A stretch of DNA of 61,319 nucleotides, filler included, from Hausera hauseri (Eukaryota), in NCBI GenBank assembly GCA_046269625.1. It is 10 parts of 10 records of this genome, joined end to end, with 100 filler letters (N's around TTAATTAATTAA, not from the genome) between each part and the next. Parts side by side here need not be neighbours in the genome. Positions count along the whole stretch, not along the records: positions 51,309 to 56,753 come from JBJURY010253736.1; 9 more parts are not named here. The stretch is one strand, 5' to 3'. Shown here piece after piece: positions 13,092 to 59,229 of this stretch (position 1 is its first letter; each line of letters starts with the position of its first letter). Made by a program: the position numbers and the translations under genes. The notes under the pieces are model-generated. The model worked only from the letters and a program-made list of their open reading frames with translations, had not been told where the DNA came from and ran no database searches.

Positions 13092-14330
13092 TCAGTTTTT
13101 TGTAGCTGGTGAGTTTGGCCTGCTATTTTGTAAGTTTGTAGTGTTGATTTTATTGTGCGTGTTGTAGTTACAGCCAGTTAGGCATTTTTGTGCTATTGTT
13201 CCAAATTTTTCGTGATAGATGCAAACGATGTTGCTTGTATTAAAATCGGGGGAGTAAAATTTACAACCGATGCAGCATTTCGGAGCATTGTTACCAAATT
13301 TGTTGTTATAGTAACAAATAGACGACCGCACGGGCGAAGGCGACCGTCTTTGTTGTTGATGAAAGACATTAGGGGAAGCAGCCCTAGAAAAACCTCGTCG
13401 AGGCAGCGTTAACTCATTTAATTTCTCGTTTATGTTATTAATTGTTCTTTGCAAAATATCACTGTCTGAGCGTAATTGCGCAATTTGTTGCTGCAGCAAT
13501 GCATTTTGTTGTTGGTGGTTTGTTGTTAATGCCTCAGAGATAGTTGGTGCCCTGTGAGTGTAGCACATTATAAGCTTTTTCTGCCAGTTCGGATAACTTT
13601 TCCACTGCCGTGGAGTCTTCGACCACAGTGAGCAAAGCTTCTATTTGAAGGGGCAATGCGTTTGAAAAGTAACGGCAAAGAAGTTCTGGACTATGCTCAG
13701 ACGTTACGCCAAGGGTATTGAGGTGAGACAAAGATGTGAGCAAGAATACAGAAGGCTTCTGAAGGCCCATGGCGTTGTTATTTAAAAACCTTTGAATGAC
13801 AGAGTCGATTGACGGCTCAGTGAGCTTAAGAACGGCATTATAAAGTTAAGCATATGGATCGGTGTGGTTAAGGATGTCGATAATGTTTGTCATTTTGGTT
13901 TTGATAAAAGCAGGTAAATTAAAAAACAGGCTGTTGGCTTTGGATAAGGGGTCGACGACGTTTTGTGATTGTAGCCAGAACTGGTGCAGTTTTAGCCATG
14001 TTTGGCTAGAATTTTGGCTGTCGAGAAAATATTCTGTGCAGAGCGAATGAGCAGGGAGTGTGTGCTGTGTCTGAGTGTTTTAAGCAGTTTGTTTGGGTAA
14101 GTAAGTGATGGATATTGGTGGTTTCGTGGGGTTGTTCGTGGTATCAATAATTGGTGATGAATCCATGCCACCGCGGATGCGGAAGTGTATGTGAAGATAG
14201 ATATAGGATAAAGAAAATTGCAGGGTTCCAACGATGGGTACCGTGGAGTCGAAGTATGTGAGGTAAAGTCAGGTGAGCGAATTAAATTGGAGATGGCGTT
14301 GTAGTGTCTAAGTGTGTTACTGCGTCCGTA
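13092..14330 (-). pseudogene. gag: Frameshifted gag of the CsRn1-like element
   Basis: ORFs 13992-14333, 13534-13770 and 13092-13568 join into one Gag with a coiled coil and two tandem Cys/His knuckles. Confidence 0.75.
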
Positions 14331-14499
14331 CAAATATGTTGATTATTTAAAAAAACGAAAAGGAGATATAGAGAGGTCGTGTAGTCGGGGGCGTGTCGCG
14401 GGGCGGAAACAAACGGTGCCGTCTGATCCAATGGTATAGGGTGGGCGGACGGCGCTTCCGCCTCGCCGCGCCGAATCCTAAACTTCGGGTGACCGAATT

Positions 14500-15670
14500 C
14501 CCCTCAAGCAATGTTACTTCATAAGTATTTTTACTTTGTGCGTATTTTGCCATATTTCCCATTTTAGAACCGTTTTTCGGACTGGGTGGGGACTTCTTTG
14601 GTTGTTGTTTGCGCGGGGCGAATAACTCCTTGCCTCTCAGTAGCGTTTGTTTGTCAGCCATCCAAGGTAATGATGCCTTCAGTAGGGTAAATATTTGGTA
14701 AAAGCAATAACGATCATATCTTTGGTATTTCTATTGGGGGCCACATGGATTGTGAGTGACGTTTTGTTATGGGTTATTTCTAATGTTTATAAACCGATGT
14801 CAACAATGCAGCTGTTTGTTAATGCCGTATACTTCAACATATCGCGGCACCTTACTGGAATAAGTAGAATTGATACTGATGCATATACTAGCGATTACTG
14901 AGTCCGGACACTGGTTGCTAATGACCATAGCTACTGGGTTTTTGCAAACAACCGTGATACTCTGTTCCTGATTGGTCGTGCGACTATAAAGTACATCGCG
15001 TGAGTACAATTCGAACAGGCGATTTCCACTGAACGAAACGTTGTTCGTCTGTTCACACTGCTCGAAAGAATCCATAGCAATATGACCACATAATGGATCA
15101 TCAAGAAAAACGCTATGCTGAGTCTTGTGCTGCTTTTGTTGACCCTCAATGCTTGTAGTTGGACCATATGTAATTTGATTTGACACAGGTGCGCAACCCA
15201 AGCAATGATATAAATATGAATCTCTGAGTGGGTCGCGTAGCCAGTGCAGTCCATCAAAAGTAACGGTGGGTAGAGAAGTGATAAACCGGGTGCGTTTATT
15301 GTAGAAAGGCGCTATAGGTACTGTAGCAGTGTGACTACCTCTATTACTGATTGTGCGACATAGAAAAGTGATAGCATTTGTAACGTTGGTAAGACTGGCT
15401 ACCGATATGTCAAGCATGTCGAGTGATACTGGTTAGGTACCATTGTGTTTTTCCATTATCGGAAAGGCAAATTTGTTTGGTTCAACAGCTAAGTAAAATA
15501 GTATGTTGTGGTGTGCGCAAACGGTCGTCAGTAAACCTGGTTGAGGAGAACAGATGCCTATCCGCTTAGAGTCAGCTGAGGGTTGTTGCAAGTTATATTG
15601 AAAAAGTAGTTGGTATCAACGTACAGACCAATAGCATCCATTTCTGAAAGGGAACGGAACGTATATCCGT
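14500..15670 (-). pseudogene. Decayed Cys-rich, N-glycosylation-rich ORF, possibly an env-like ectodomain
   Basis: 205-aa ORF 14800-15417 plus flanking broken frames; intronless; many Cys and NxS/T sites (NIT, NGT, NVT, NVS, NST). No TM recognised. Confidence 0.35.
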
Positions 15671-15785
15671 TATTACTATTATGAGAATTTTTACAATTTG
15701 AAATTGATAAAAATACCAACATTACCTTGCTGAAAAGTTTCATATCCGATTGCGACAAAATAAGTACATAGATTTTCTGACACCA

Positions 15786-16055
15786 TTAATAATTCACAAT
15801 TTTCGGTAGAAGGTTTATTCGAGGAGAATGCACGGACCATCCAAAATCCACCAATTTCAGATTGTAATCATACCCAATGAGCAAATTTCCAGGTTTTACG
15901 TCGCGATGTATAACGCCTTTTGAATGACAATACCCGAGTGCTTCACATAGAGTAGCCGATATCTGACCGTACCGCGCATACTCAGGAACCAGATAAACTC
16001 GATTATCATCGTCAAACCAAGCATATATTTGTAAAATATTCTGATGGGATAGTTT
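15786..16055 (-). pseudogene. Aurora kinase fragment (not in the ORF track)
   Basis: [85 protein letters not shown] is an Aurora signature. About 20 aa are missing between YGQI and SATL, and similarity ends after WSVHSP. Confidence 0.85.
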
Positions 16056-17153
16056 GAGCAGAAAACCTCAAGGTTGAACAAAAAAGAAATTTAAGTGTTG
16101 ACTAAACTGTTGGTGATTGGTAGAACGTAGTCGACAATAAATCACTGGACCGGCTTTAAAATATACATCGCTGAACTTTGAGTTGTTGTATTTGTCAATC
16201 GTTGTTTTATAATGATTGTCCCAAACACTGTCATCGTCATTGTTAATCAACGATGTCCAATATTTCCCTTTAAGATCATTCAATTCTGTTGCCAACCGAG
16301 GAATGCCAGAAAAATATCTTTGATAAAAAGAAACTAAATTATTTGAGTTGAAAACAACTATTAAGAGATCCAATACTGGACTATTAAAACTCTTCTGAAA
16401 TCATCTAGAAAGACTGGAATAGCTGACATCAGCAACTTGATATTGATAGTGGGATTTGATGGTCCTTAATAATGAAGCAATTTCTTTATTTTTGTCTGAA
16501 GACATGTTGTTTCAGGTGACACTACTAGTTCAAAAAGCAGCAGTTGGTTACATAATTTATTTTCAAAGACTCCCGTGGTGTGGAAAATTCCACTGTATTT
16601 TCATTTTCTGTATCATTAACTTCCGAGCATTTTTTATTTGCATCGACATTTTCATTGATGGTCAAATAATTATTCGATGTTACGTTCACTGATTTTGTGT
16701 CTGATAACTCAATAGTTTCCTCGATCTTATTGCAACTATCCGACGTTTGTTCAAGATTACAATGTGTCCCGCTGCTATTACTTTCTGAATAAAATTCTGG
16801 ATTATTTTTTATTATAGTTATGTTTTGTTCTAATGATTAAACCACTGAATTCTTTGACCCCTTTGATNNNNNNNNNNAATGAAAACAACATTTGACATTT
16901 CATTATTTGAAGTTTCTACAATGTTAATATTCTCTTCGGTTGGACTATTTACTTTCGAAAGATCCCGTTTGAACAATTCATTTGACGAATGGTAATCGTC
17001 GACAAAGTTACGTTTCTCATCAGTTGTTGCTGAACGATTAGCTCGATCTTCAGAGATGATCAGAACTTTAGCGGATTCATGAAAATCTATATCAGAATTT
17101 GTCGAAATGGAATATGACGAGCATTTGTACAAATTATTTTCGTGGCGCTGAAA

Positions 17154-17253: not shown

Positions 17254-20200
17254 CTATTTTATGGCACTTAAACACAATTTTTGGCAATTAACTGAAAAGT
17301 CGCAACTAACATGGGAACGAACGTTGATAGTCCAATGATTGATAAAATTGGAAAGGTCGTTAATCCAGTTGGTCTTTTTGAAGTGATTGGAGTAGTGATT
17401 TCGTTGTCTATATTTTCGTCTAGATGTGGTTCTGCACGGATTTCGTCTAGAGCGCGTAAGGCGGATGTCTTGTTTTGTTTATCCTTTGCGTATATTTGTA
17501 TTACATAATCCGACTGCGGTTTTAGTAAGTTACATTCTGTCTGATAACTATTTTTAAACAATGTCACAATTGGGTTATGGTACAACGTCCTGCAGCTTAT
17601 TTTCTTCCACCGAGAACACAATTTTATACTGCTGGATCAAGTATTTAATAGGTATACTTTCTATTTCTCTTTTAGGCATTTTCTCTGAAATGATGGATTC
17701 CGTGACAGTACTCACCTGAGTAGTTGGTTTCCTCGTTGTTGCTTCAAGTGAAATTTCCCATATCTGATCTTCCGGATAGTATCTTCCAGAGAAAATACTT
17801 GATTCATTAGGTAGGAGTCTATAAAAGTTGAAATATATTTTATACTCATAACTTATCGGTATTTTACAACGTGGATTCGGTACTGTGGACCCAATGCCAC
17901 AATATTCTGGTAGGGGAGCTAATTCATTTGACTTACTAAATCGAACTGAGATTGCTCGGTCGTCCGGCAACATCCCTCTAGTTTTTATCTGGACACATCT
18001 CTTTTTCTTATTCTTCGAAATTCTGAGTATGTTCTCGTCTAACATTCGTTTGGATCGGTTGATTGGATCATTTCATCAAATTTCTCTTTCAAACGTCGAT
18101 CAATCGAAGGTATAATTAATTGAAATTGTGGGTCCACTTCGGCATAGACTTCATTTGATTCCGGCAAATACAAACGGTAAGTGAAAATATGAGTGTCCGT
18201 AGTTTACGTCATAGCACCTGGTTCGAAATCACAATTGATTATCGCTTTCCTTGTTTTATCATGTAGTACTACCTGAAATATTCCAAAATCACGATGTGGT
18301 TTTGTGTTCTAAATGCAACAGTTTCGGGTGTAAAGTAGTAGGCCTTCGTTGTTTGTAATAACTTGGTGTAATCTTGTTCCATGATTTGTTCGGCGGTCAA
18401 TTTCTTTTCATTTATTACCTTTTTTCGTCTTAATCCGCTTTTACGAATTCCATATACGTCTCTTAGCGTAGTTTCGTCATCCTACTACTGGGTCTTAGTT
18501 TTTGGTATGTAGGAAACAATTAATGATAACGCTAATATTATCTGTACGTAAGATATTGGTCTGGCAATTATGGAAGAAGTTTTCGTTTCTCTTTTGTTTC
18601 GATTCTGGTTTTCGTTTTTCGATCGCAAATTATAACCTTTATTCGGTTTTATTTCCGTTTTGACAACTTTGAACTGAACTGACACAACCTCTTCTTTTCC
18701 ATTTTTGTTAATATAAACCGTAGTCGGGGTGGTTCTGGTAATTTCGTACGGTCCTCTTCCAATACGGGACAACTTTAACGATGTGCCTTTTTTGGCTACT
18801 GGGTAGTGTATGTAAATCCAATTTCCTTGTTCCACGTCGAGTGGTTTCGCTTTCTTATCATACTGCTTTTTAAATTGTCCTTGATATTCTTGGGATAATT
18901 CTTTAGCAATTTCCCAACACTTCCGTAACTGTGTATGTAACACTTGCAAAATTTTGTTCCAAATCTTCAGGATTAATCGTATATGGCGTCATTCCTAAAC
19001 CTGTCAATAATATGGCTTTTCGTCCATACATCATGAAAAATGGTGTAAATCCGGTTGCGGGGTGTGGTGTCGTATTAATAGCAAATTGAGTTCTTTCTAG
19101 AAATTCGTCCCAAATTTTTGATCTTTTGCGACTACTATTGATAGAATATGTATAACGGCTGCGTTCATACGTTCCACAATTCCGCTACACTGGGTATGAT
19201 ATGCGGTCGTAGTTAATCGTTCGATCTCGAATATTTTGGTAATTTTATCAAATAACTCGTTCGAAAAGTTTCTTCCTCAATCGGTCATGATCTCATTGGG
19301 CGGTTCGTACCTGCAGATAACTTTTCTTACTACGACGTCGGCTAAAGTCTCGGCCTTTTGATCGACCAGTGCTATTAACTCCACTCTGAATTAGTCGATT
19401 ATACAGGTCAGAATGTTATTCCTGTAGGACATAGGTAGGGGTCCTACAATAATCACTGACAGCTTGCACGGGTCTATCTGGTACGTTTATTGGTTTTAAT
19501 TTAGTTCTTCACCTTTTTCTGTTTGGTTGCACACACTTCAAAATCACTTACCAAATTTTTCACATCAGTGTAAATACTGGGCCAATAATATTTATTCACT
19601 ATTTTTCTAGCGTCTTTTCCAAGACATGCCCAGCTAAGTATGAATCGTGTTCTGCCATCAAAACTTCTACTTATAATACTTTTGGGATGACTACGAGTTT
19701 TCGTCCTTTACGCTCGTAATATAAAATATTTTCGTGACTCTTATCACTCGAAACACAGTATTTATGCCTGTATCACTGTAAGTGTTTTCTTAGCTGGTGT
19801 CCTTTTGGAATTACGTTTTTTTCAGCATATTCTATAACCTGCTGGATGACTCAACCCTTTATCTGTTCCGCTGAAATTTTAATTGCCTTATTCAATGTTA
19901 AAGCCCGTGGCAGTCTACTAACTCTTCGAGTTGACTCTTCTTCATCACAGAAATTGCACTCATCTTAGTTTTTAATCTCGATAATGCATTAGCGTCAACG
20001 TGTTTATTTCCAGGCTTCGATGTTATAACGCCAGATTTCTTCGATTCATCGATTGAGTCTACATGTTGGGTTGTTTGCTCTATTCTTTAAAGTCGTGAGT
20101 GATTTATGATCGGTAACGATTATGATTTTTTGTCCGTAAACATAAGCGTTAAAATTTCTTAATGCTTCCTTTACCGCTAATTTTTCTAATTCTGTAACTG

Positions 20201-21573
20201 AAATTTTTTTACCACTTTCTTTAATGAACGTCCTCCACAAGCGATTCGGTGGTCTAACTAAACCCATATCTTCTGAGCCAATTTGTATCCCATACCTCCT
20301 TTAATGGTGTCGGTTTGATTATAAATGGCAGATGAAAATCAGGAATTCTTAAAACTGGTTCGCTTGTTAAAATTTGTTTCATTTCGTCGAAAGCTTTCTG
20401 TTCGACGTCTGTTCACTTCCACATGATTCCTTTCTTAAGTAGACGATATAACGATGCATTTATTTTCGAGTTAACTGGAACATAAGTGGCACAGTATCCA
20501 CACAATTCTAACCAATGTCTTAATTCTTTCTGGTTTTGTGGATCCATACAACCTGATATTTTATTTAACAATGATTTATCTTATCTCGATCCTCCGTTTC
20601 CAACTATATGTCCAAGGTAAGATACTGCGTTTTGAGCCCACTTTCATTTCTTAGGATTTAATTTCAATCATGCTTGCTCTAATAGCATGAGGATATCTTC
20701 AATATCCTTCAAGTGCTTTTCTTCCTTTCTCGATGCTATTATTACATCGTTTAAGCAGGCAAACGCACGATCCAGTCCCATTAACAATTTATTCATCATT
20801 CTTGTGAAAATAGCTGGTCCAGTTGTGGTACCGAACGGCATGACATTAAATTCCTATACACCATTGTGTCTTTCAACTTCGTTTTTTATCGGTCTTCATC
20901 TTCAACTGATTAGTAGTTCTTGATTATTTGTATGGGGTTCTAGGTTTCGAAAAGTTTGCATTTTTTGAGTTCGACCCTACTGTTGATTGGGTTTCTATAT
21001 TTTGAGGTAGTTTTGGAGAACATAATACTTTGTGGTCATCCACTGACTGTTGGCGACAAGGTGCAGAGTTTTCTCTATACTCTTGCCTTTTCCGTAAAAC
21101 TCCATAATGTTTCGTTCCTTCATAAGGGTTTTCGAAACTAAATGGCCTTCTATAGATTTCTGTTTTGTACGAACTCATTGATCGTTTGTCACAGTCTTCA
21201 TAGACTGGTGCAGTCTGAGGCAACATAGGTAGTGGTGGCTTTATAACACAATGCGTCTCGTGTCTGTTTATTCTGCAAATGGCATCTCCACCCTTAGGCT
21301 CGTCATCATCCGGATTGTTTTTCTCATTTTGGGGTTGAGGAATTTCCGTCCATATAAAAATAGGGGTTTTCTTCATTGTTTGCGATTACGATAGCCAATA
21401 TGTCGTTCTACATTAGATTTGGGCCTAATTTCTCCGTAAGTTTTCAGAAATTTTCCGAACGCTGTTATAATTGCAGTCAAAATTTTGTTTGAAAATCCCG
21501 TTAATATAAATATCTAATATCCGTTTATAAATGCTTGAATTACTACTTTGATGAACTGCACTATGAATTAGAT
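17254..21573 (-). mobile_element. Decayed Ty3/gypsy element, same family as 51309-56753: glycoprotein tail - linker - (PR and RT N-half deleted) - RT C-half - RNase H - integrase - membrane-protein ORF
   Basis: Collinear with contig 9 (FINGY.IFILTGFSNKILTAII, DDDEPKGGDA, PPLPMLP, FNVMPFG, SVTELEKLAVKEAL, TDHKSL, RGPYEI, GYNLRS); many stops and frameshifts. Confidence 0.9.
17268..18580 (-). pseudogene. Post-integrase type I membrane protein-like ORF with FN3-like motif
   Basis: Hydrophobic ISYVQIILALSLIVSYI in frame with integrase; Cys-containing ectodomain; Thr-rich linker; LLKPQSDYVIQIYAK (FN3 L-x-P-x-x-x-Y-x-x-x-V-x-A pattern); TM-like FPILSIIGLSTFVPMLVATFQLIA. Confidence 0.6.
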
Positions 21574-36622: not shown

Positions 36623-39457
36623 TTAATTGCGTATTGTCGTACGTTCCGTTTGCGGAAGTACGGACGTTGGAGTAATGTACATTTCAGTTTTGAACGAGGT
36701 TGGGTCATATACTACGGTAGTGTGCATATTGAATGGATCAATCTTCTCGTAGTTTTCTCGAAGTTTGTCTACTTCTGACATGCTTGGTACATCTTGTTGG
36801 ATAGGATCTTCCATATCGGAATCATGATAGCCGAATGCGGGTTTTGCATTTGATAAGTGGACTATATGTTCATCGTTGTCGTGCAATATTTTGGCGTTGT
36901 GCTCAGTCATTTCTGAAATTGTAGCGACCTGTATAATACGTTTCAAAACCGTGTCTATGTTGGCCTTTGAGCCAGACAAAGGACGCATCTTGTATATTCT
37001 TGGGCATGATTGGTTTTTTGTGATTGTTGTGGAATGCAGGGTTCGTGTCTATTGACAGGAAATGCTTCCGAGCTTGGTTGCGAGCAGGAATTGAAGATAC
37101 TTCTACGTTGCTCACCATATCTTGCGGGAATGTGAGGTGGGCACCAAATAATATTTGTGCCGGAGAGGCATCAGTGCTAGTGTTCGGAGTGTTTCTCCAC
37201 CCTAATAGCACAATGGGTAATGCATCCAGCCACTTCTTGTTATCGTGGCATAGGATTCGTAAGGATAATTTGAGTGTACGATAAAATCGTTCAATCAAAC
37301 CATTCGCCTGTGGATGATAAAGCGATATATGTATATCCTTTGAACCAAGCGATTTGGTTAATTGGTTAAACTTGGCTGATTCGAATTGGATACCTTGATC
37401 TGTTATAATGTTTAGGCAATCCAAACCGAGAAATCCATGTATTTAGCAATACATCTACGACGCTTTGCGTTGTTATTTGGCGGATTGGAATGGCTTCGGG
37501 CCATCTTGTTTTTCGGTCGAGAATGGTTAAGATGTACTGATATCCGTTACATTCGGGAAGTGGTCCTACTATGTCCATGTGGATGATTTCAAGCCGTGAG
37601 CCAGTAGGATAGTGTAGGATTGGTGGTTGTATAGTCTTTTTGACTTTATACTGTTGGCAAAGTGAACATTCTTTTATCCACCGCTTTATGTCGCTTAGCA
37701 TGCGAGGCTAACAAACTCTACTGCTTAATAGGCGAGCTGTGGCTTTTGATCCAGGGTGATGGATGTTGTGAATAGTGTCAAATGCCTGTTTCCGTAGGTT
37801 TGCTGCCAAAATTTGGCGTGGACAACCACTGAGGATGGTATTGTAATGTATTCCATCCTTTGTGTCGACTGTTTTGAAGAACATAACATCGTCTTCATAT
37901 GGAGGGTTCGATCGCGGAACCTCTTCCGTAAAAATGAAGTCAAAGGATATTGTCGATATCCCAGTTCTGCAAAAGAAATCAGAAACTGTGTTATCTTTTC
38001 CAGTTATGTGTTCTATCTGGAATGAGAATTTCGACAGAAATGAGATGTGTCGCTCTTGACGAGGCGATTACCTTTTCATACTTATCATGTGAATGAGTGG
38101 TTTGTGATCCGTGCGGATTGTGAAAACGTTTCCTTCGAGGAAATGTCTGAAGTGTTTGACACCGAGAATAATTGCTGGTAATTCTCGGTCGAAAGTTGAA
38201 TAGCGCTGCTCGGCCGAATTGAATTTGTGCGAAAAGAATTCAATGGGAGCATTTTTGCCATCTATTGACTGGGCAAGCATGGCACCTGCAGCGATGGTGG
38301 ATGTATCTGTTGTTAAGATGAACGATGCATCTCGTTTAGGATAGTGTAGTGTAGGTATGTGAAGAAACGCCCTTTTTACATTGGCAAATGCCTGTTCAGC
38401 TTCATCCGTCCAGTTTACCTGGGATTTCTTGGGTACTTGGCTTAGAGCAGATAGAGGTGACAGGATTTCCGAGCAGTGCGGAATATAGCGATGGCAGAAA
38501 TTTATCGTTCCAAGGAAGCTGCGAAGTCCAGTCACTGTGGATAGCTTCGGTATTTGTTTGATGGTCTCTAGTCGCTCAGGAAGAGGACTGTGGCCATGTG
38601 GTGTTAACCGAAGTCCGAGAAATACGGCTTCAGTTTTAAAGAATGAATATTTGTTTATGTTGAACTGTAGGTTGTTTTCATTCAACCTATGAAACACATG
38701 TTCGAGGTGTGTTTTGTGAGTCGCTTCATTGGGTAATGCAATCAATATATCATCTATATATGGGATTACATAAAGCATGTCGATGAGGACTTGGTCTATA
38801 TGGCATTGGAATGTTTGATTTGCATTCCGTAAGCCAAAAGGCATGCGTATGTACTCGAACAAACCAAAAGGCGTTATTACGGTCGTTTTTGGATTGTCTT
38901 TGGTAGCCACTGGAATCTGGCGATGCAATATGTCGGTTACCAACGGTGTTGGGTATGAATCGTGGACGATGACGTTATTTAACATTCTGTAGTCACAACA
39001 AGGCCGGTATGAACCGTCCTTTTGAGAACCATGTTCAATGGTGATGCCCACGGTGATGTAGAGCGGCGTCTTATGCCAGCTTCAAGGTGTCGGAATTCGG
39101 CTTCCGCGGCTACTTTCTTGACAGGGTCAAGCTCCTTCCGGGGTTGCCGAATCGGTCGATCACATGATGTAACGAAAGTGTGATGTTTTCACCTCTTTCT
39201 GTGTTGGTTGTGTTGAGCGTTTCAACAAGTTAGAGTATTGCGCTTGCAGCAATGGTGCGATATCAATGGGATTTGCGATTTTTATGCCCGTGACCGCGTT
39301 TATGGTTAGTGTGAATGCGGGTGAAGGTAATGGATTGCTTCCGCTGATGAGTTGTTGATTTCAGCAATCAACTGTGAGATCTTAGTGATCTAGGAAGTCA
39401 GAACCGAGGATTGGTTGCATGACATCGGTCAATATGAATGACCAAGCGTATGGTCGG
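36623..39457 (-). mobile_element. pol: Decayed CsRn1-like Ty3/gypsy pol (protease end, RT, RNase H, integrase)
   Basis: PILGSDFL, YRPCCDYR, ITPFGLFEY.RMPFGLRNA, YIDDILI, LTTDTS, YSTFDREL, TDHKPL, HMDIVGPLP, RWPEAIP, TDQGIQFES and YHPQANGLIER. Confidence 0.92.
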
Positions 39458-39565
39458 TGTGGTGCTCGCAGCGGCCGGCGCCCTCTGGCTCATTTAGTTA
39501 GACACGGCCGAGCGTCCATCGCCGCCGCGTCGGGCCCATAGGAGGGCCCCCGATCTTCCTCCACT
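39458..39565 (+). repeat. LTR 5'-end fragment homologous to 11893-11795, opposite in orientation to the pol it abuts
   Basis: TGTGGTGctcgcagcggccggcgccctctggctcatttagttagacacggccgagcgtccatcgccgccgcgtcgggc aligns by eye with the contig 2 LTR start. Confidence 0.8.
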
Positions 39566-47122: not shown

Positions 47123-48215
47123 ACAATTATAAAGGAAAATTAGTCATAGTTGTCCCCCAAGAAGATATAAAACTTTTGTTAACTCATTACCACAACAGTA
47201 TGTTGGAAGGACACCAATCAGTAAAACGGGCCTTAGGAAGATTAAAACGGAAGTATTATTGACAAAATATGCTTAAAGATGTAGACGATTAATGCAAAAG
47301 TTGCTCTATATGTGCAAGAAGGAAAAATATCGGCTCAAAAATTAAAGTCCCTTTGAAACCATTAAAATGCCCATCAGCCCCAATGGAATTCTCGGCAATG
47401 GATATTCTGGGACCAGTGCCGATGACAACGAACGGATATAAGTGTATGCTAGTATTCGTCAATTTATTTTCTAGTTGGCAGGTTGCAATCCCAATTTCAG
47501 ATCAAAAGGCACAAACTATTGATCAGGCTTTCGTAGAAGAAATTATATTTAATTACGGGGCACCCGCAAAGTTACTAACGGATCAAGCTCCAAACTTCAC
47601 CGTAGAAGTAATAACGGATATATCAAAAATGTTCCAAATACTACATTTAAAAACAACCCCATATTATCCAAAAATTAATGGAACGGTAGAAAGATTCAAT
47701 GGAATTCTAAATAATATGTTGGGTACTACGGTTAACGAACGGCAGGTGATATGGATGAATACATCAAGCCTCGCTTGTTCGCCATCAGAAACACAATCCA
47801 TCCTATAACAAAAGAAATACCATTCTATTTGATGTATCTCAGAGAAGCTCACATGCCGGTCGATTTTGATTTTAAGATGTCCGTTTCCAATTTGAATGAT
47901 ATGGAATATAAAAAATTACTGGATGAAAAACTGGGATATGTATGGGATCTAGCATCACGACATATAAAAATTTGTCAGAAGGAATATAAAGCACAATATG
48001 ATGAAAAAGCAAAATCACACAACCTTAAGCCTGGAAATAAGATTATGTTACACACTCGTCTAAGTAAGAAAGGAAGGACTCTGAAATTGGACAGACCATG
48101 CAAAAATCCATAAACGCTCCAACAAATGGATGAAACTAACACCTATCTAATTAAGAAAAAGCGAAATAAAATGAATCCAATAAAAGTCCATGTGAAAAGA
48201 TGTAAACGCGCACCA
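47123..48215 (+). pseudogene. Ty3/gypsy integrase
   Basis: HHCC zinc finger, DDE core and C-terminal domain across ORFs 47353-47808, 47751-48113 and 48126 onward. Confidence 0.93.
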
Positions 48216-48239
48216 ACAGTGTCAAAGATAAGGAATGGC

Positions 48240-49437
48240 AACTCCAGATCATTATCCATAGCAACACTCTTAATGATAAGCTTGATAACATGTATATTAG
48301 TTGAATCTTTAGATGTAACGTATAAAGCTGTCCAGGTTGGAAGGTATTCTTGTATAAAAATTAAGGCTAATCGAAACTTAACAACAAACGAGTATATATA
48401 CATATTTATATAAAAAATACCTTTGATATATAAAGCAACACCTGAAATTGTGATCTATATTATAATCACTCAACTCATACCTATTGTGGACTTTCATTTA
48501 AAGTATCTTATAGAATCCAATACGCAACTGGGAGAAGAGGTCAGTGGTACAGATCATATTTTTCATATCCTGGTACGACTCACTACTTCTACGAACCATA
48601 CTTTCGTGTTTCATTTTAGACCAAAATTATGAAAAATGGACCATGTGTGACGGCGGAATTAGAAGCTGCAATAACAAAGTACCGATTTGTAGAATACTGC
48701 ATCGAAAACAAAACTGACATAAGTAAATGTACACCAAATTATCAAAACCCACATTTATTCTGCCCCTTTCCAATTGATAAATAATATCAAATATATTATT
48801 GGACCACAGTCGACGGTTACACATGGTCAAGGGTGTCAGATGGACCAGAAGTAATTTAAAGATCCCCACACTGACAACTGCCTCAAATAAAACGATAATT
48901 GCTACCACAAAATTACCAATAAAAATAGTGACTGAAGCCACGAAAAATTATAAAAGAATTATATGTTACGCCACATTCACTTACCATTACCGTATCGAAC
49001 TTGAAGAATACAAATATGAAATTTGAGTGTTTCCTCTATCATGGAATGGTTAGTGAGGAAGTATAACTCCAGATGAACCCACATCCGTATGCACATCCTT
49101 GAAAGACGATACAAATTAGAAAGTGATTATAACAGAATTGGATGAGGATGGACGAAATATACAAACAGTTTATCGCATGGAAAAAACTCTAAAGCGAATA
49201 ATTATGACACCTATGGAAGTCACAAAAATAGCAACTATACAAAACCACCACAAAAGTAAAGATAAATATTTTTGGATAATTATTGTACTGAGTATTTTTC
49301 TAGTATTACTAACCATAATTTTACCTTTAACAATCTACTATTCTAAAATAAGACGGCGACAACGTAGGATAAAAGAAATATTAAACCAGTTAAAACTTTT
49401 AAGAGAAGATTCCAAAGACAAATTACAGAGGACATAA
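48240..49437 (+). pseudogene. Post-integrase type I membrane protein-like ORF
   Basis: Signal-like SLSIATLLMISLITCILVES in frame with the integrase tail; Cys-containing segments; Thr-rich linker; strong TM YFWIIIVLSIFLVLLTIILPLTIYY followed by basic stop-transfer KIRRRQRR. Confidence 0.7.
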
Positions 49438-51308: not shown

Positions 51309-54300
51309 AGGAATTCGTCCCAATCCTTTTGACCTTTTGCAACTACGGTTGACAATATTCGTATCACAGTAGCATTCATGCGTTCAACCATTCCATTACA
51401 TTGAGGATGGTAGGCTGTCGTAGTCAACCTCTCAATTTCAAATATTTTCGTGATTTTATCGAACAGCTCACTGGTGAAATTTCTCCCTCGATCAGTCAGT
51501 ATCTGATCTGGAGATCAGTATCTACAGATAATTTTCCTTACTACGGCTTCGGCTAATGTTTCTGCTTTCTAATCATATAGTGCCACTAACTCCACAAAGT
51601 GAGTTAGTCGATCAACGCATGTCAGTATATATCTGTTATTTCTGTTATATGGTAATGCGATGTCCATCGACATAGCTTGCATTGGTCTGTCTGGTACAAT
51701 TATTGGCTTCAGCTCTGCTATGTAATTCCGCATTTTCCTCTGCTTAGTCGCGCATACTTCGCAAGCGCTTTCCCAATTTTTCACATCAATATATACTAGG
51801 CCAATAGTATTTGTTTAGCGTCCTATTTAACGTCTTTTTCCAGGACATGTGCCCAGCTAGATACGAATCGTGTTCGGCCATTAAAACTTCAGTTCGTAGA
51901 ATTTTGGATATAACTATTAATTTCCTTCCTTTTCGTTCATAATACAGTACTTTTTTATTGTTCTTGTTTTCGGAGACACAATATTTATGTCCATGTCATT
52001 GTAAATGTTTCCTTAACTGGTGGCCTTTTGGCATTACGTCTGCTTCAGCGCATTCCATGATTTATTGGATAACTCGATCCTTCTTTTGTTCGCTCGAAAT
52101 TCTAATTGCTCCGTCTGACGCTAAAGTTCGTTCTCGGTCTACTAACTCTTCGAGCTGGTTTTTCTTCATTGTCATTATAGCACTTGTTTTCGTTTTCAAT
52201 CGTGACAACGCATCTGCATCAACGTGCTTCGCACCAGGTTTATATTGAAATTCAATATTATACCTCGAGATTTCTTCGATCCATCTATTAAACTTACACG
52301 TAGGGTTATTTGCTCGTCCCTTTAAAGTCGTAACTGCTTGTTATCGGTAATTATTATTATCTTCTGTCCATATATGTAAACGTTGAAATGCCTTAAGGCT
52401 TCTTTTACTGCTAATGTTTCTAATTCTGTCACTGAATAGTTTCTCTCTGCTTTCTTTAAGGAGCGCCCTCCATAAGCGATTGGATGTTCTAGTTCTTCGT
52501 CCTCGCGCTTCTGTGCCAACTCATATCCGATACCTTCTTTACTCGCGTCTGTTTTAATAATAAATGGTAAGCTAAAATTAGGGTATCTCAGTACTGGTTC
52601 GCTAGTCAGTATCTTTTTCATTTCGTCGAACGCCTTTTGTCTGACATCCGTCCATCTCAACTTAGTTCCTTTTTTTAATAACCGATACAATGGCGCATTC
52701 ATTTTTGAGTTATCCGGTACGTAAGTAGCATAATATCCGCACAGGCCTAACCAATGTCTTAGTTCTTTCTGGTTCTGTGGTTCCATACAGTCTGAAATAT
52801 TATTCAACAATGATTTGTCGAGTTTTGATCCTCCTTTTTCAACTATGTGGCCAAGGTAAGACACGGCGTTTTGAGCCCATTTGCATTTCTTTGGATTCAC
52901 TTTTAACCCGGCCTTCTCTAATCTCATGAGAGTGACCTCAATATCTCAGATGTTCTTTTTCGTCTTTTGATGCAGTCATTCCGTCATCTAAGTACGCAAA
53001 TGCATGTTCAAGTCCCATTAGCATTTTATTCATCATGCTCGTAAATATGTCTGATCCAGCGGTAATTCCAAATGGCATAACGTTAAATTCGTATACTCCG
53101 TTATGAGTTTTAAATGCTATTTTATAACTATCTGCATCTTCAATCTCTACCTGCCAATATCCGGATTTTAAGTCCAGCGTGATGAACCATTTTGCTCCGG
53201 AGAGCCTATCTAGAGCCTCTTTCACAGATGGTAAGGGAAAGGAATCTTTCATCATGAGAGTACTTAGTGCTCTATAATCGATACAAAATCGATGTTTCGT
53301 GGTACCTTTCTTTTTGACCATAAAAATAGGTGAATACCAAGATTTGAAACTTTGTCGGATTATATCCGCTTTGAGCATCCGTTCTATCTCCTTGGTGATA
53401 TCTGGTCTTAAGGAGTGTGGCGGCGGATACCATTTTGGCATTTTCTGTTCTTCGAAATCAATCTCATCGTTGGAACCAGGCTTTTTCTTAAGTGGTACAG
53501 TTAACTCTAATGCTTTTTCTCGGCCAATGTTTTCGTCCTTGGCAATGATTGATTTATATCGACATAATAATTCGTAAAACTGGCAATAAGCTTCTGGTGA
53601 AAACTTCGTATCGATGTGTGGTGGAAATTCCGCGTATGTATATGGTTTCTCTTCAACCGTTATTGCTGATACTTTGTAAGTATGTCCTAAAGTAGTGTTA
53701 GCATACAGTCTTATTGGGGTTGAAGCATTATTCACTATTCTGACTGGTATTCGGCCAGACGCTACTCGGGTTAATATATTGCTCAATATTATATTAGGAT
53801 TCAATGTTACTTTCGGCTCAAAGTACACTGGTAAATCGTCGTCTTGACAGATTTGCGCGAATATCAACAATTCCGTTCCAGGCGGAATGTTTTCGTCGAC
53901 CGAAATCCATACCTCTCCGAATTCTCTTTCTTTATTAACCTTAGTTCCCTTTATCGGTCCGAGTTCGATTAATTTCGAGGTATTCAAATCTACTGCAACA
54001 TTTGGTAGGCGCATTAATATATCACAGCCTAACACTACGTCATCTGTCAAGTGTTCCATTATAGAGAATTCATGTTGGAACGTTTGTCCCATTATCTTAA
54101 GATTAGGGTTCCACTTAAATTTCGGTCTTGACTCTTGTCCGAAAGCTCCTATACTTCCGGGGTCCGTTGCTAGTGGTAAACATAGTTGGTTCCGTAATGT
54201 TTTTGGTATCGATCCGTCCTTTATAAATGATTTCTCTGGTCCGGTATCTACTAGTGCGTATACTTCTCGATCGTCAATACTAATTTTGGCGAAAGGTCTA

Positions 54301-54740
54301 CCTTCTTTTATCATAGATTGTCTAACAACGGATATCTTGTACCCATTTATACTAATTTCTGGTGCTTTATTCTCTGCTATCTGTCTTAATTCCTCAATGG
54401 GATATAATCCGTTATTTACATTATTTTCACTGTCTCCATCTGGAGTATTGATTAGCGGTTCTCGGTTGTTTTGGTTATGGAAAGATCGCATTCGTGGATT
54501 ATCCCAAATTGATGATTTAGTTTCTATATTTCGCGATATCCTTGGAGAGAATATCACCTTGCGATCATCCATTGGCTGGCGGAATAATTCGGATTTTTCC
54601 CTGGTTCGGTAAATTTTTCGTAACACGCCGTATTGTTTTGTCCCTTCATAAGGATCCTCATAGTTGAAAGGCTTCCGATAAATTTCCGAACTATAGGAGT
54701 TAATATATCTTTTACCGCAGTCTTCGTATTGTGGTGCCGA
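51309..54740 (-). pseudogene. pol: Ty3/gypsy pol (aspartic protease, RT, RNase H, integrase), frameshifted
   Basis: ALVDTG, VLGCDIL, RFCIDYR, LDLKSGYWQ, FNVMPFG, YLDD, KTDAS, YSVTELE, C..C, MSMDI and TTAYHPQCNGMVER. Confidence 0.95.
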
Positions 54741-54899
54741 GGGGGCAGCATAGGCAAAGGCGGCCTGGGCGCCTTACGACTGCCTATCTTGGAGACCGCG
54801 TCTCCTCCCTTAGGCTCATCATCATCTGAATCGTTTCTTCGAAATTTTGTATTTCTTTGTCCTATAAAAAATATAGGTTTTCTCTTCCGTTCCCGATTA

Positions 54900-56753
54900 T
54901 AGTAACCAACGTGTCTCTCGACGTCGCTTTTCCATTTGTTTTCTTCGTACGCCTTCAAAAATTTTCCAAACGGTGTTATGATTGCGGTTAAGATTTTGCA
55001 TGAAAATCCGGTTAGAGTAAATATTTCATAGCCATTTATAATGGATTGAATTATGGCCTTTATCAGTTGCACCAAGAAGTAGATGGCTAAAAATCCGGAT
55101 GCAGCTTGTCCAAAAATTAGACATCTTCCCCGATTTTATATAGTATCTCTGTACTGACTCTGATAATGATTAACGCCAAGTAGGGATTCGCATTTTGCTT
55201 AATAGCGAGTATCATCCACCACCGGCGACATAGCTCTACTTAGTTCATGTGTACGCTGTCGAGGGAAAGCTAGGAATTGCCTAAAAGTCTCGATTTTCTT
55301 TGGTCTGTAAATCCCTTTACTTGCGGTGTCAGCGAATTTATCATCCGTTATACTCCTTAACAAATTTGTCCCGGTTAATTTGCTACGTGTGGCTGTTCTT
55401 CCTCCATTTGGTAAACCTACCCAGTCTGTCTCAGTTCTCTTTTACATGGATTCTCCTAAACCTGCTTTTCATTCCTTCAAAATCGTTGGTGGGTCAAATT
55501 TTCCACCAAAACGCTTGTAAGTGGCATCGCCAATCTAGGCATATTCTGGTATAGGACTGGTAAGTATTGAATACAACGTTTTTCTTCTACGTTTATAGAT
55601 ACATCCCGTTTTTCACATTCGTAGGTTAACAGGGCTTCCCCAGTAACTCTTCCGAAAATTTCTTCATTCATCGGAATTACAGGTGCCGCTAGTTCTAGAT
55701 TTGCGTAGACCAAGGCTAGTTTGATCAACATAATTTCTATATCCAGTTTACAGTCATTTGCGATCATCTTGTGATATAATTCTGCTAGTCTAATTTGTCC
55801 TTTATAATAAAAGTAATCATCCCTATTTTTCAAGTAATCATCTATTCTTACATCATGTGTTTGAAAAACCAAAGTAGTTATTGCAGCTTCTGCCACAAAG
55901 AATGCTTCATAATTGGTGGCGTACATTACTACGTTACATCGAGAAAGCATTTGATTCTTAATAAACTTTAAACCGTGATTCTCGGATATCAGTATCGTGG
56001 GTGTGGACTGTTCAGCTACGTCCTTCCTTGACCTGGCATCATTGTCAGTTGTGTCCACATATCTTTTTCCCGTGGTTTCATCAAAATTTATTTCTTTTAT
56101 CTTAATAAAGTTACAATGGTTCATAGGTGGTGGGGTCCAAATAACTGTCGAATTTCGGAAAGTATAGGCACCGTCTTGGATATGACACTTCTGGTTTTCG
56201 GTATGTTTTTGTAACACTATGGAACATCATCTTTTGATTCCTCATTTCTGTCTCATAGAAATCGACCACTAACATTCTGCCTTCTCTTCCTTTTCCCGTA
56301 TCGTATTCACCTCATTTACGGTATCCGGTGTGCATATCTAGTTTCCCAACTGCTACTTTATGCACTCAAATTATTTTTCCTGGTTGGGCTTCTAACTCCA
56401 TCCCATCTCAACTCAATCTTCCGGTTTCTTTGGCTTGTTTACACTGCTGTTGGTCTAAATCCATAGGAATTAATGGAGTCGTTGGTTTTACTATCGATAA
56501 ATGTCCGTACATATTCCAACAGTAAAAAATACTTCGTGATTGTCGCAATATGCACTTTATTCCGTCTATTGCGATTAGTTCGCGCTGTTGATACAAAAAA
56601 TACTTTTTCTCAATGGTTAATAACTTGTGAGGTCTGGCGCCCTCGCATAACTGCAGATCCATCAATGTATAATTTTAACCTATTTTAAACTTATAACAGT
56701 CGTAGACCGTGATTGCACCGAGTTGTCTTATTAACATCATAAGTGTTATTAAT
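54900..56753 (-). pseudogene. env: Chuvirus-type (class III, gB-related) envelope glycoprotein, essentially full length, disrupted
   Basis: Signal-like LITLMMLIRQLGA|ITVYDC; YTLMDLQLC; KCILRQSRSIFYC; QQCKQ..ETG; C..QDG....NSTVIW....C; ELYHKMIANDC; RVTGEALLTYEC; CIQYLPV; GIY..KKIETFRQFLAFP; FGQAASGFLAIYFLVQLIKAIIQSIINGYEIFTLTGFSCKILTAI. Collinear with recalled chuvirus G blocks (GYDC, CK....RTIFYC, LY......C, GEV...KC, CY.ELPV, GIY...L..LR..IMFP, FG..SAG......IIHGY.L...YGWS..LLGA). Confidence 0.88.
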
Positions 56754-56853: not shown

Positions 56854-57185
56854 TGGGTGTGTGTGGGGGGGGGGGGGGGAATCGGAACAAGTGCCGAAAA
56901 TCTCAAAATGCGTTATTTTGGCTTACTTGGCACAATGTATTCATTTTGCGCATCTCCGTGACTATTTGATAATAAAAATTACTCAGATTTACAGTTCATC
57001 CAATTCGACCATGTTGTAGAACCGAATACGTAAAAATCAATACCACACATTTTGCAACGTTAGAATTGTCTGAATTTTCTGAGAAAGACTGAATAAATAA
57101 ATTTGTGACGTTTCTCAATATATTTTATTCATTGTACATTTGATAAAATTATAGTTCTTGTCCGACATTCTCTCATTCTTTTCAG

Positions 57186-59206
57186 GCTGCAAAAACTTCC
57201 GATGACTCGAACAGGGATGAAACTGCAACGAATTCCATTTGTATTATTTGTAAAAAGCAGATTTATTTTCTGGAAAAACTGACAGTCAGCGATAAACTAT
57301 ATCATCGTTCTTGTTATCGACAAGTTCAAATTGACAATTTGAAAATTCGGAACAGAACTCTCGAAAGACCGAAAGTCCAAGTCAATGAAATATCGGATCA
57401 TAACGAAAATGTACTGAAGCCCGACGAAAGCAATGCTGCAAATAACAAAGGCGATAGCAACAGATTAACACCGGAAAAAGTTCCGTCTCCTGTGAGTAAA
57501 CTCGACAATGATGAACACAAACCACCAGATTCGAAAACCATTAGGCCGATTGAAAGTAACCAAAAACCGATTATGAAGATTGACAATAAGATTCCAAATT
57601 TAACACTTCCAGAAAAGCTACCTCGCAAAACCACACCGACATCTTCATTTCGATCGAAAGATGAACCGAAGAAATTGACGGAGAATCTGTCGAAGTCGTC
57701 CGATATTCTCAACCAAAGCAACGATGTAAATAGTCTAAGTGAAGCGGCTAATGTGTCAGATGACAAGAGCATTCGCAAAAGATCTCTTAGTCCGAACCAT
57801 GTTACAGAAAGCAAAGAATCGAAGCATATTGATACACCATTTTCCAAATCAACTGACGATTTATCCAAAATGGAAAAGCCACAAAATTCCTCCCAGTTTC
57901 CTACTCACAGTCTTCAGAGTTCATCTGTCAACTATATATCCGTTAATGCTTCATCAATAGACTCATTAAATGATAGTAATTCGAGTTTGTTCAAAAGAAG
58001 TAAAGCCTTAGCATCGAATAATCTATCGGTGTCGAATTCTCTCTCATCGTCGTCATCTTGCTTGAATTCATCATTCAACAAAAAGCGCCATGCTCCTCTT
58101 CCTCCGAAAGCGCAAATAAACCTCAGTGAAATCCAGAACAGTAATAAGAAACCACAGATTCCCGATGCGGAATGCTTTTATCCCGATGAACTTAATCCGT
58201 TCAATTTACCCGAAGATAAAGACGTCAAACTTGAAAAGCCTAAGAAACCAGCAAAGCCAGTTAAACCGGAAAAGCCCCGAAAACCGGACAAACCAAAAAA
58301 CTTAAATCCGTTTGCGGAATTTATGGTAGACGAATCTAAAGATCTCAAAAATGTACTATCTCAAACGAAGCCGAAGAAGCGTACTGCTCCAAAAGTACCA
58401 CCAAAACCATCGGATAAAGACAGTCCAAAGGTCTCCGAACAAAGTCCGACGCGTAAAGGTGGAGATTTGCCAATCCCGGTAAAAAATGAAATATCGACGA
58501 AATCCGAATGTATAATCGAAATGAATACTATCAATTATGTTCCGGAAAACGTCAAAGAAGACACATCAGATTCAGAAAAACGAGAGTTGTTACCTGACAC
58601 GAATAAAGTCGAAGATTCCCAGAAAGAGTCAGATTATTTACAATTGGCCTGTAAAGAAGAAAAACTGTCAGATACAAAGACGATTGACGATACTCAAAAA
58701 GAATCCGAATATTCATTGTTAACAATAATCGAAGACAAATCTGTGAAATCTGACGAACAACCGAATGCCGATAGAAACCGTTCTTCTCCCGTTTCACAAC
58801 CTGTTGTTATTTGTAACATCAGCACATCTGTCATTCTAAACGACGACCAATTAGCTCTCCAACTACCAAGTAAAGAAAAGTCTCGATCTCAAGATTCTTT
58901 ACGAAAAACAAAATGTTTCCGAATCAGCCGACAAAAAGCACCGGCTCCATCTCGACCGGCACCAATGAAAAGAGAAGTTCGTGGTGATAAGAGTTTTCAA
59001 TTTGTTCCCTACGAAACTCTTCATGCGCAGTTGGAAGAAGTCAATCGAGAACTGTCACAGATCGAACAGAAAGGTCGGACGCTTCAAAATTCACTGTGGG
59101 AAGCCAAGGAAAATGATGAGAATTTCGAAGATATGCTTCAGGATTGGTTGGATCTAGTCAAGAATAAGAATGATTTATTTATGAAAGAACGGAATTTACA
59201 CGAAAT
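57186..59206 (+). CDS. MICALL: Large internal exon of a MICAL-like (MICAL-L) Rab/EHD effector
   Basis: Acceptor ttcag at 57181-57185; CIICKKQIYFLEKLTVSDKLYHRSCYR (LIM first finger); two NPF motifs (ELNPF, NLNPF); Pro/Lys-rich linkers; N-half of a bMERB domain (LSQIEQKGRTL..MLQDWLDLVKNKNDLFMKERNL). The ORF-track stop lies inside the donor AT|GTAAGG at 59207. Confidence 0.85.
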
Positions 59207-59229
59207 GTAAGGGATTTGTGTTTTAAATG

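Follow-up and report, generated by a model that had tools for sequence, protein, structure and literature searches.

The 61,319-nucleotide stretch analyzed here (the window) derives from Hausera hauseri (GenBank assembly GCA_046269625.1) and consists of ten contigs joined by N-spacers. Its ninth contig (JBJURY010253736.1, positions 51309 to 56753 of the window) carries a retroelement on the minus strand in which an envelope glycoprotein (Env, or G) precedes pol. According to Pfam, Env is followed by RVP protease, RVT_1, RT_RNaseH, and integrase, and the Ty3/gypsy pol order of protease, reverse transcriptase (RT), RNase H, and integrase (PR-RT-RH-IN) is present. In tblastn alignments the contig is collinear with two protein relatives, P0039 (amino acids [aa] 375 to 2035) and P0155 (aa 549 to 2219). 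The aspartic protease (LVDTG) occupies positions 54009 to 54305 (RVP, E 5.4e-6). RT, with its YLDD motif, and RNase H occupy 52352 to 53318 (RVT_1, RT_RNaseH, RT_RNaseH_2) and are interrupted by a frame break near 52945. The integrase zinc finger and core (51309 to 51905) are broken and cut by the contig edge; Integrase_H2C2 matched with an E value of 3.8e-10, the core was represented by two weak rve pieces that both fell below the Pfam cut-off, and its extent was traced by tblastn with the relatives. The best Protein Data Bank (PDB) match of the RT was Ty3 RT (4ol8, E 2.6e-27, 98.9 bits), the next non-Ty3 entry reaching 72.1 bits and spumaviral entries no more than 35.5 bits. Judged by these matches, pol is of the Ty3/gypsy (Metaviridae) type.

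The Env ectodomain (55121 to 56713) is broken, and the match of its separate pieces to PF24664 (Monjiviricetes_fusion) assigns it to the Monjiviricetes/chuvirus (gB-type) family. Three open reading frame (ORF) pieces scored above the 27-bit cut-off, namely 56411 to 56674 (E 2.9e-7), 55480 to 56226 (E 4.2e-10), and 54557 to 55135 (E 7.8e-11), and they matched profile positions 39 to 120, 213 to 421, and 545 to 603, in that order. The largest piece is 28 to 33% identical to eight relatives, with seven invariant cysteines, and all seven relatives scanned matched the same family at E 1.5e-83 or better. As a query on its own, the G piece retrieved nothing among longer proteins or in Atlas. An earlier inspection of this DNA, referred to here as the sequence-only reading, had placed a full-length fusion glycoprotein on this strand. 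The three matches bear out its location, and its extent is as described, but the gene is broken by several stops and frameshifts and its signal is cut by the contig edge. The term class III, as used here for the putative fusogen, follows from Pfam family membership and the literature.

The transmembrane (TM) anchor of Env, which contains an FGQ motif, is predicted at 55049 to 55120 from a hydropathy peak of 2.27 and from profile positions 545 to 603. It had been assigned to the region near 54950; the peak lies instead at about 55050 to 55095 and is followed by a weaker hydrophobic stretch that extends to about 54956. At the other end of Env, frame translation and alignment to relatives revealed the C-terminal remnant of a hydrophobic, internal signal, cut by the contig edge (56714 to 56753). 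This remnant aligns with P0039 from aa 375 and with P0155 from aa 549, within their hydrophobic segments 368 to 386 and 539 to 557; in relatives, the same ORF carries gag and a spacer upstream of this signal. Since the alignment of contig 9 starts within the hydrophobic segment that precedes G, the signal would be internal and gag would lie beyond the edge.

Between the Env anchor and the protease lies a cytoplasmic tail or linker of about 245 codons (54306 to 55048), interrupted by a frame break near 54740 to 54775 and devoid of capsid or zinc knuckle. The linker piece matched neither Pfam nor a gag profile that was built from four relatives and that detects 31 of 143 other retrieved proteins (E < 1e-3). 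On the 1,109 ORF pieces of the window used in profile searches, the best score of this profile was 4.6 bits (E 1.5), and no gag was detected between G and protease. No LTR-sized repeat (LTR, long terminal repeat) was found in contig 9, only two chance-level direct repeats of 20 to 21 nt; an Rfam search gave 0 matches. Thus, as judged by Pfam, gag profile, and repeat search, the linker runs straight from G into the protease without capsid, zinc knuckle, or LTR, as the sequence-only reading had stated. The tail also contains an LYP-x3-L motif (54387 to 54407), about 52 residues ahead of the active site of the protease, which is a candidate ALIX-type late domain. The pattern YPx(n)L, which we take to be the ALIX-binding late-domain pattern, is fitted in the form YPx(1 or 3)L by six of the nine relatives described below and by the window. 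In eight of the nine, [LI]YP occurs 31 to 62 residues before the first protease, compared with an expectation of 0.011 to 0.111 per linker, although the relatives are kin and these counts are not independent. A PSAP in the linker was dropped as a motif because contig 3 has a different reading at this site and the linkers of the relatives do not conserve it.

Relatives were identified by searching the linker-protease-RT ORF against 1.84 billion representative proteins. Three of the 150 best matches taken also matched the G pieces of the window, and two further searches with the G region of one relative added six more G-bearing proteins, giving nine. A search among shorter proteins yielded one match among 8,000 candidates scored, likewise fused. 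G runs into the protease in one ORF in all nine and on into RT in seven; P0154 and P0170 end in protease. Gag features stand upstream of Env in five of the nine, and the other four start downstream of the expected gag. P0152, P0154, P0155, and P0170 carry a capsid-like region plus a CCHC motif upstream of G in the same ORF, and P0039 carries the CCHC only. Between G and protease, neither a CCHC motif nor other gag features occurred in any of the nine, and in six of them the linker measures only 39 to 81 residues. P0152 (4,029 aa) represents a cluster of 20, of which the 15 members listed have 4,026 to 4,029 aa. On the strength of these relatives, the order of the element is gag-env-pol, with gag predicted past the contig edge, and the proposed order with a queried gag before env is upheld. 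No related locus was confirmed in viral, metagenome, and genome contig collections, and no LTR-bearing locus was obtained from them. P0039, a gag-env-pol polyprotein with the additional post-integrase module described below, was submitted as a hypothetical protein from a Flavobacteriaceae metagenome-assembled genome (MAG) and is most likely eukaryotic contamination of the MAG bin.

Two or three DTG/DSG protease motifs, located after the Env tail and after integrase, were present in five of eight relatives scanned (P0037, P0151, P0152, P0153, and P0154), that is, at the junctions between Env and Pol and between Pol and the post-integrase module (X) described below. C2H2 zinc fingers lie between the protease motifs in P0151 and P0153. 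No extra protease motif was seen in the window copies. In a 34-taxon tree, the window RT grouped with the G-bearing proteins as their deepest branch (UFBoot 96).

Two further copies of the clade reside in the window. On the minus strand of contig 3, a second, diverged copy (18590 to 21573; blastn and tblastn) comprises Env TM, linker, RT, RNase H, and a complete integrase, with 66% and 71% nucleotide identity to contig 9 in blastn. It has no equivalent of 53143 to 54510, so that the protease and the N-terminal part of RT are deleted. The recurrence of the junction, as claimed previously, consequently holds for the order TM-linker-RT-RH-IN but not for the linker-protease junction itself. On the plus strand of contig 8, a third element of the same clade (47134 to 49434) consists of integrase, a signal-like segment, a broken ectodomain, a TM segment, and a basic tail. 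The nine best blastp matches of its integrase are the nine clade proteins, at 47 to 53% identity. All window copies are pseudogenes. The family appears large and diverged, on the basis of one sequencing run (X1) in which 10,245 contig records matched at 80% identity or more and depth was found in all 30 bins; X1 is the single run matching the stretch, is possibly its source sample and hence lends no independent support, and no RNA run was listed.

Behind the TM protein of contig 8 (49815 to 50654, plus strand), we noticed a piece with an RSGL...VID pattern, which to our eye recalls dUTPase; this piece had no Pfam or PDB match. In the same interval, a 156-aa piece weakly resembles a DEDD exonuclease (ISG20L2, E 1.5). 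Extras of both kinds are known in rotifer elements (PMC5408684).

Env and pol most likely form one reading frame, a point missed by the sequence-only reading; the alignment of ORFs between copies indicates it. In contig 9, the Pol ORF (52938 to 54773) overlaps the Env-tail ORF (54554 to 55135) in the -1 frame. Frameshifting ahead of pol is a standard device of retroelements, and it would resolve the stoichiometry problem posed by a single ORF; under such a scheme, gag-env and pol would be separate frames connected by programmed -1 frameshifting, and the overlap at 54554 to 54773 would be functional. We consider this improbable. One ORF of contig 3 aligns with both frames of contig 9 in turn, first with that of Env, at 44% over 36 aa (E 9e-8), and further on with that of Pol, at 53% over 86 aa (E 1e-29). 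Since this ORF spans both frames, with the homologous stretch open, the break of contig 9 is not shared; contig 3 is broken elsewhere in the Env tail. Together with the nine G-bearing relatives, all in frame, it makes decay a better explanation of the overlap than programmed frameshifting, and contig 9 carries many other decay breaks. A slippery-like heptamer, AAATTTA, near 54620 was rejected because its register does not allow a -1 shift out of the Env frame. The arrangement could also have arisen if a gag-pol-env element lay upstream, with G as its 3' env, and a deletion or nested insertion had fused this G to a downstream pol. In favor of this, neither contig includes the sequence upstream, and the contig 3 copy is evidence that internal deletions happen in the family. 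Such a chimera is nevertheless barely credible, given that the whole of contig 9 is collinear with intact single-ORF relatives, that a copy with just 66 to 71% identity shares the order, and that the window RT belongs to the G-bearing clade. Equally, the linker might hide a short, unrecognized gag, making the order env-gag-pol as in two mite genomes, Medioppia and Oppia, for which ENV-GAG-POL with a short GAG has been reported (PMC13524379). The length of the linker and its 53% conservation over 86 aa between the two window copies would suit this possibility. It is very unlikely all the same: the linker matches neither the gag profile nor Pfam, the six mite elements listed in PMC13524379 have an F-type Env, gag is upstream in the relatives, and most of their linkers are short.

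Besides Env, most members of the clade encode a second predicted membrane protein behind integrase, which the sequence-only reading had overlooked in contig 3. Two hydrophobic segments at least 80 residues apart were found there in seven of nine clade proteins, compared with 0 of 48 other gypsy proteins, and the same pair occurs in contigs 3 and 8. On the minus strand of contig 3, a signal-like segment follows the integrase end (18512 to 18556; hydropathy 2.16), at the same position as in relatives, and a predicted TM segment lies after a Thr-rich stalk (17304 to 17348; hydropathy 2.25). The corresponding segments of contig 8 are a signal-like stretch at about 48258 to 48302 (2.76) and a TM segment at about 49276 to 49320 (3.46). 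Within the ectodomain, a C-x2-L-x2-[DNGQE]-x2-Y motif was present in six of nine clade proteins and absent from 241,683 residues of 143 others. Two cysteines and L...Y are invariant across six aligned units. A profile derived solely from relatives ranked a piece of the broken contig 3 protein (17472 to 17615, minus strand) first among the 1,109 pieces, with 14.8 bits (E 1.2e-3) compared with 11.9 bits for the best of 20 shuffles, and leave-one-out tests recovered the unit in five of five proteins. Direct tblastn of the relatives' tails against the window missed this module, which was found by profile only. On contig 8, no match of the profile was among the top eight listed.

The ectodomain is likely fibronectin type III (FN3)-like in most members, as suggested by a comparison of the six-unit alignment with PDB, which gave 22 matches at E ≤ 10, with neogenin the best (E 0.0013). 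Going by their names, 21 of the 22 are presumably FN3-bearing proteins (neogenin, contactin-1, sidekick-2, Tie2, EphA2, fibronectin, and others). In Atlas, fn3 clusters scored 0.87 to 0.90, the top hit being one of them at 0.90. Among the 143 controls, the unit profile scored highest, albeit weakly (E 0.2), on the real fn3 domain of P0120. A short CC-x2-C-x5-C-x3-C domain replaces the FN3-like repeats in P0155 (aa 2453 to 2577) and P0073 (aa about 1085 to 1200), which suggests that the ectodomain has been swapped within the clade.

Taken together, we are fairly confident that contig 9 contains a decayed Ty3/gypsy copy in which a chuvirus-family G stands directly upstream of PR-RT-RH-IN, and that its relatives encode gag, env, pol, and in most cases a further membrane protein, likely of FN3 type, in one frame whose product is probably cut at the endoplasmic reticulum membrane for enveloped particles. 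The chain would be threaded with Gag in the cytosol, an internal signal, Env in the lumen, the FGQ-containing TM segment, which would return it to the cytosol, and Pol; a second signal, the FN3-like ectodomain in the lumen, a TM segment, and a tail would follow. Signal peptidase would free the two lumenal proteins, and the element protease would detach Pol from the membrane tethers at its two ends. The extra protease-like copies of several relatives sit at exactly the Env-Pol and Pol-X junctions, where this release is proposed. YPx(n)L in the Env tail could recruit ALIX/ESCRT for budding, and Env would fuse membranes. The FN3-like protein may serve as a separate attachment or adhesion protein, a role that we rate about evenly against that of a decoy or tether.

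Several observations weigh against this interpretation. No G match was found in PDB sequence searches among the 60 rows listed of 356 and of 140, and the protein searches favored long fused proteins. The 34 taxa of the RT tree were hand-picked from a 120-taxon FastTree (which omitted 14 cluster-mates of P0152 and 37 proteins with short RT matches), and in that tree the grouping reached only 0.43. Contig 9 ends inside the element: gag, LTRs, and primer-binding site of this copy were not found within it, and it stops inside integrase, so that its own post-integrase module is not seen. In run X1, no listed piece exceeded 582 nt, none spanned the element, and no extension was obtained. As to the post-integrase protein, the 48 controls were proteins with a detectable integrase end, many of which may simply end there; P0073 has the second hydrophobic segment only, and P0153 has neither and lacks the module. 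All PDB E values for the FN3-like units were at least 0.001, Pfam fn3 matched none of the six units, and the Atlas recognition value was 1533, below the 2300 mark. The ectodomains of P0155 and P0073 are Cys-rich, without the FN3 motif.

A broader proposal, which we put forward tentatively and consider doubtful, is that the clade represents an enveloped retroelement with two-component entry from one polyprotein. A class III fusogen before Pol and an FN3-type attachment protein after integrase would both be released by signal peptidase, Pol would be slung between two anchors, and the late motif would be on Env instead of Gag. Alternatively, with gag-env-pol real, the post-integrase protein could be a variable captured accessory, acting as an immune decoy, a superinfection block, or a membrane tether for Pol. 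We give this alternative slightly less than an even chance. Ectodomains of different types and lengths occur in the clade, P0153 has none, and rotifer elements are known to carry additional ORFs behind pol, some TM-bearing and some enzymatic (PMC5408684). On the other hand, the layout of signal, ectodomain, and TM segment is kept in frame across the clade despite very divergent ectodomains. The invariance of two cysteines and L...Y in the six units shows selection, though not for which function.

The sequence-only reading held that an env-before-pol order had not been described. This order is already in print; the statements that follow refer to excerpts of the papers cited. GAG-ENV-POL elements with only HSV/gB-type ENV occur in Nematoda, Bryozoa, and Platyhelminthes, and chuvirus-like glycoproteins adjoin gypsy pol (Chary and Hayashi, eLife, PMC13524379); literature searches aimed at the gene order turned up this paper alone. 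In Burro, a giant LTR retrotransposon of planarians, gag and pol flank an in-frame env (Arkhipova and Yushenova 2019, PMC6431247). Nine flatworm elements are listed in the supplement of PMC13524379, six of them from Schmidtea. These six, Smed_errantivirus_1-6 (configuration C1a), share with the window a Ty3/gypsy pol, a gB/chuvirus-like Env, and env before pol, whereas the window copy is decayed. In domain I/II of the six Smed Env sequences, we noted by eye, unscored, a TP...RF.K...C...Y.TNY pattern shared with the window piece and a YQE(S/T/V)D(F/L) pattern shared with P0037 and P0151 to P0154. The excerpts of PMC13524379 describe neither a post-integrase membrane protein nor a tail motif; its main text, to the same extent, is without the words "fused," "in-frame," "polyprotein," and "fibronectin," and "fibronectin" and "FN3" had 0 matches in the portions of its supplements that were searched.

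Burro/GYPSM1 resembles the relatives in that env is in frame in one polyprotein and in that the env region matches mononegavirus fusion glycoproteins (PMC6431247). Unlike the window Env, that of Burro is described as homologous to gypsy Env (baculo/paramyxo-like), and its polyprotein of about 4,900 to 5,100 aa includes BIR, BCL2, ankyrin, MATH, and dUTPase modules, none of which was observed in the relatives; FN3 is not mentioned in the passages on Burro (PMC6431247). The bdelloid rotifer LTR elements have extra TM-bearing and DEDDy exonuclease ORFs after pol as well as dUTPase domains (Rodriguez et al. 2017, PMC5408684). These extras are separate ORF3s that mostly replace env, with FN3 unmentioned in the excerpts (PMC5408684), whereas in the present clade the TM protein is additional to Env and in frame with integrase. 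The Tor elements of Oikopleura have the normal arrangement, with env not before pol (PMC4402516). Anakin BEL/Pao elements (Dezordi et al. 2020) carry the same glycoprotein family, as stated in PMC13524379. Their pol is of the BEL/Pao type, in contrast to the Ty3/gypsy-type pol of the window, for which no BEL/Pao-type Pfam domain was returned. Non-canonical endogenous retroviruses of nematodes reportedly have one continuous gag-env-pro-pol ORF, and their extra ORFs are said to encode a small protein or a UPF1-like helicase. Their flipped env-pol order (Sacco et al. 2022) is cited in PMC13524379. In literature searched by title and abstract, with Repbase and subscription papers outside this scope, neither a post-integrase FN3 protein in retroelements nor an Env-tail late motif in such elements was found. 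The gene order is thus known, and the part not found in print, the post-integrase FN3-like membrane protein together with the Env-tail motif, seems undescribed.

The env-before-pol order needs no new explanation; the rest of the anatomy does. An in-frame gag-env-pol-X polyprotein would have to cross the membrane four times, would, in the absence of regulation, produce Gag and Pol in equal quantity, and would require release of Pol from anchors at both ends. If the two-component proposal is true, a fusion/attachment split like that of paramyxo- and herpesviruses would be combined with an alphavirus-like polyprotein, a combination that was not found described for retroelements in the literature searched. 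Herpesvirus gB needs partner proteins, and an attachment role of the FN3-like protein would address how gB-type retroelement Envs find target cells. The intact 4,029-aa relative with its 20 cluster members makes processing and topology testable. It should be noted that annotation that stops at integrase, or that seeks env only 3' of pol, would miss both modules.

Other mobile elements were observed in the window. Contig 6 carries an unrelated Ty3/gypsy pol (36623 to 39161, minus strand) that comprises RT, RNase H, and integrase and does not belong to the env-bearing clade. Contig 2 contains, on its minus strand, decayed gag-like sequence from a further gypsy-type element (13092 to 14079), which is preceded by intronless-looking pieces of host genes (whole region, 13092 to 16400), including by eye a fragment of an Aurora-like kinase (15786 to 16067). 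Contigs 2 and 6 share 78 bp at 85% identity (11816 to 11893 and 39458 to 39535). A near-intact non-LTR retrotransposon with a coiled-coil ORF1, endonuclease, RT, and zf-RVT occupies 40651 to 45323 of contig 7 (minus strand). Contig 1 contains a fragment of a protein-primed DNA polymerase B (9089 to 10403, minus strand; DNA_pol_B_2, E 4.4e-7), which is probably a Polinton/Maverick relic. On the plus strand of contig 10, an open stretch of 687 codons (57147 to 59210) belongs to a host gene of the MICAL-like/EHBP type and includes a bMERB domain as well as a partial LIM-like motif.

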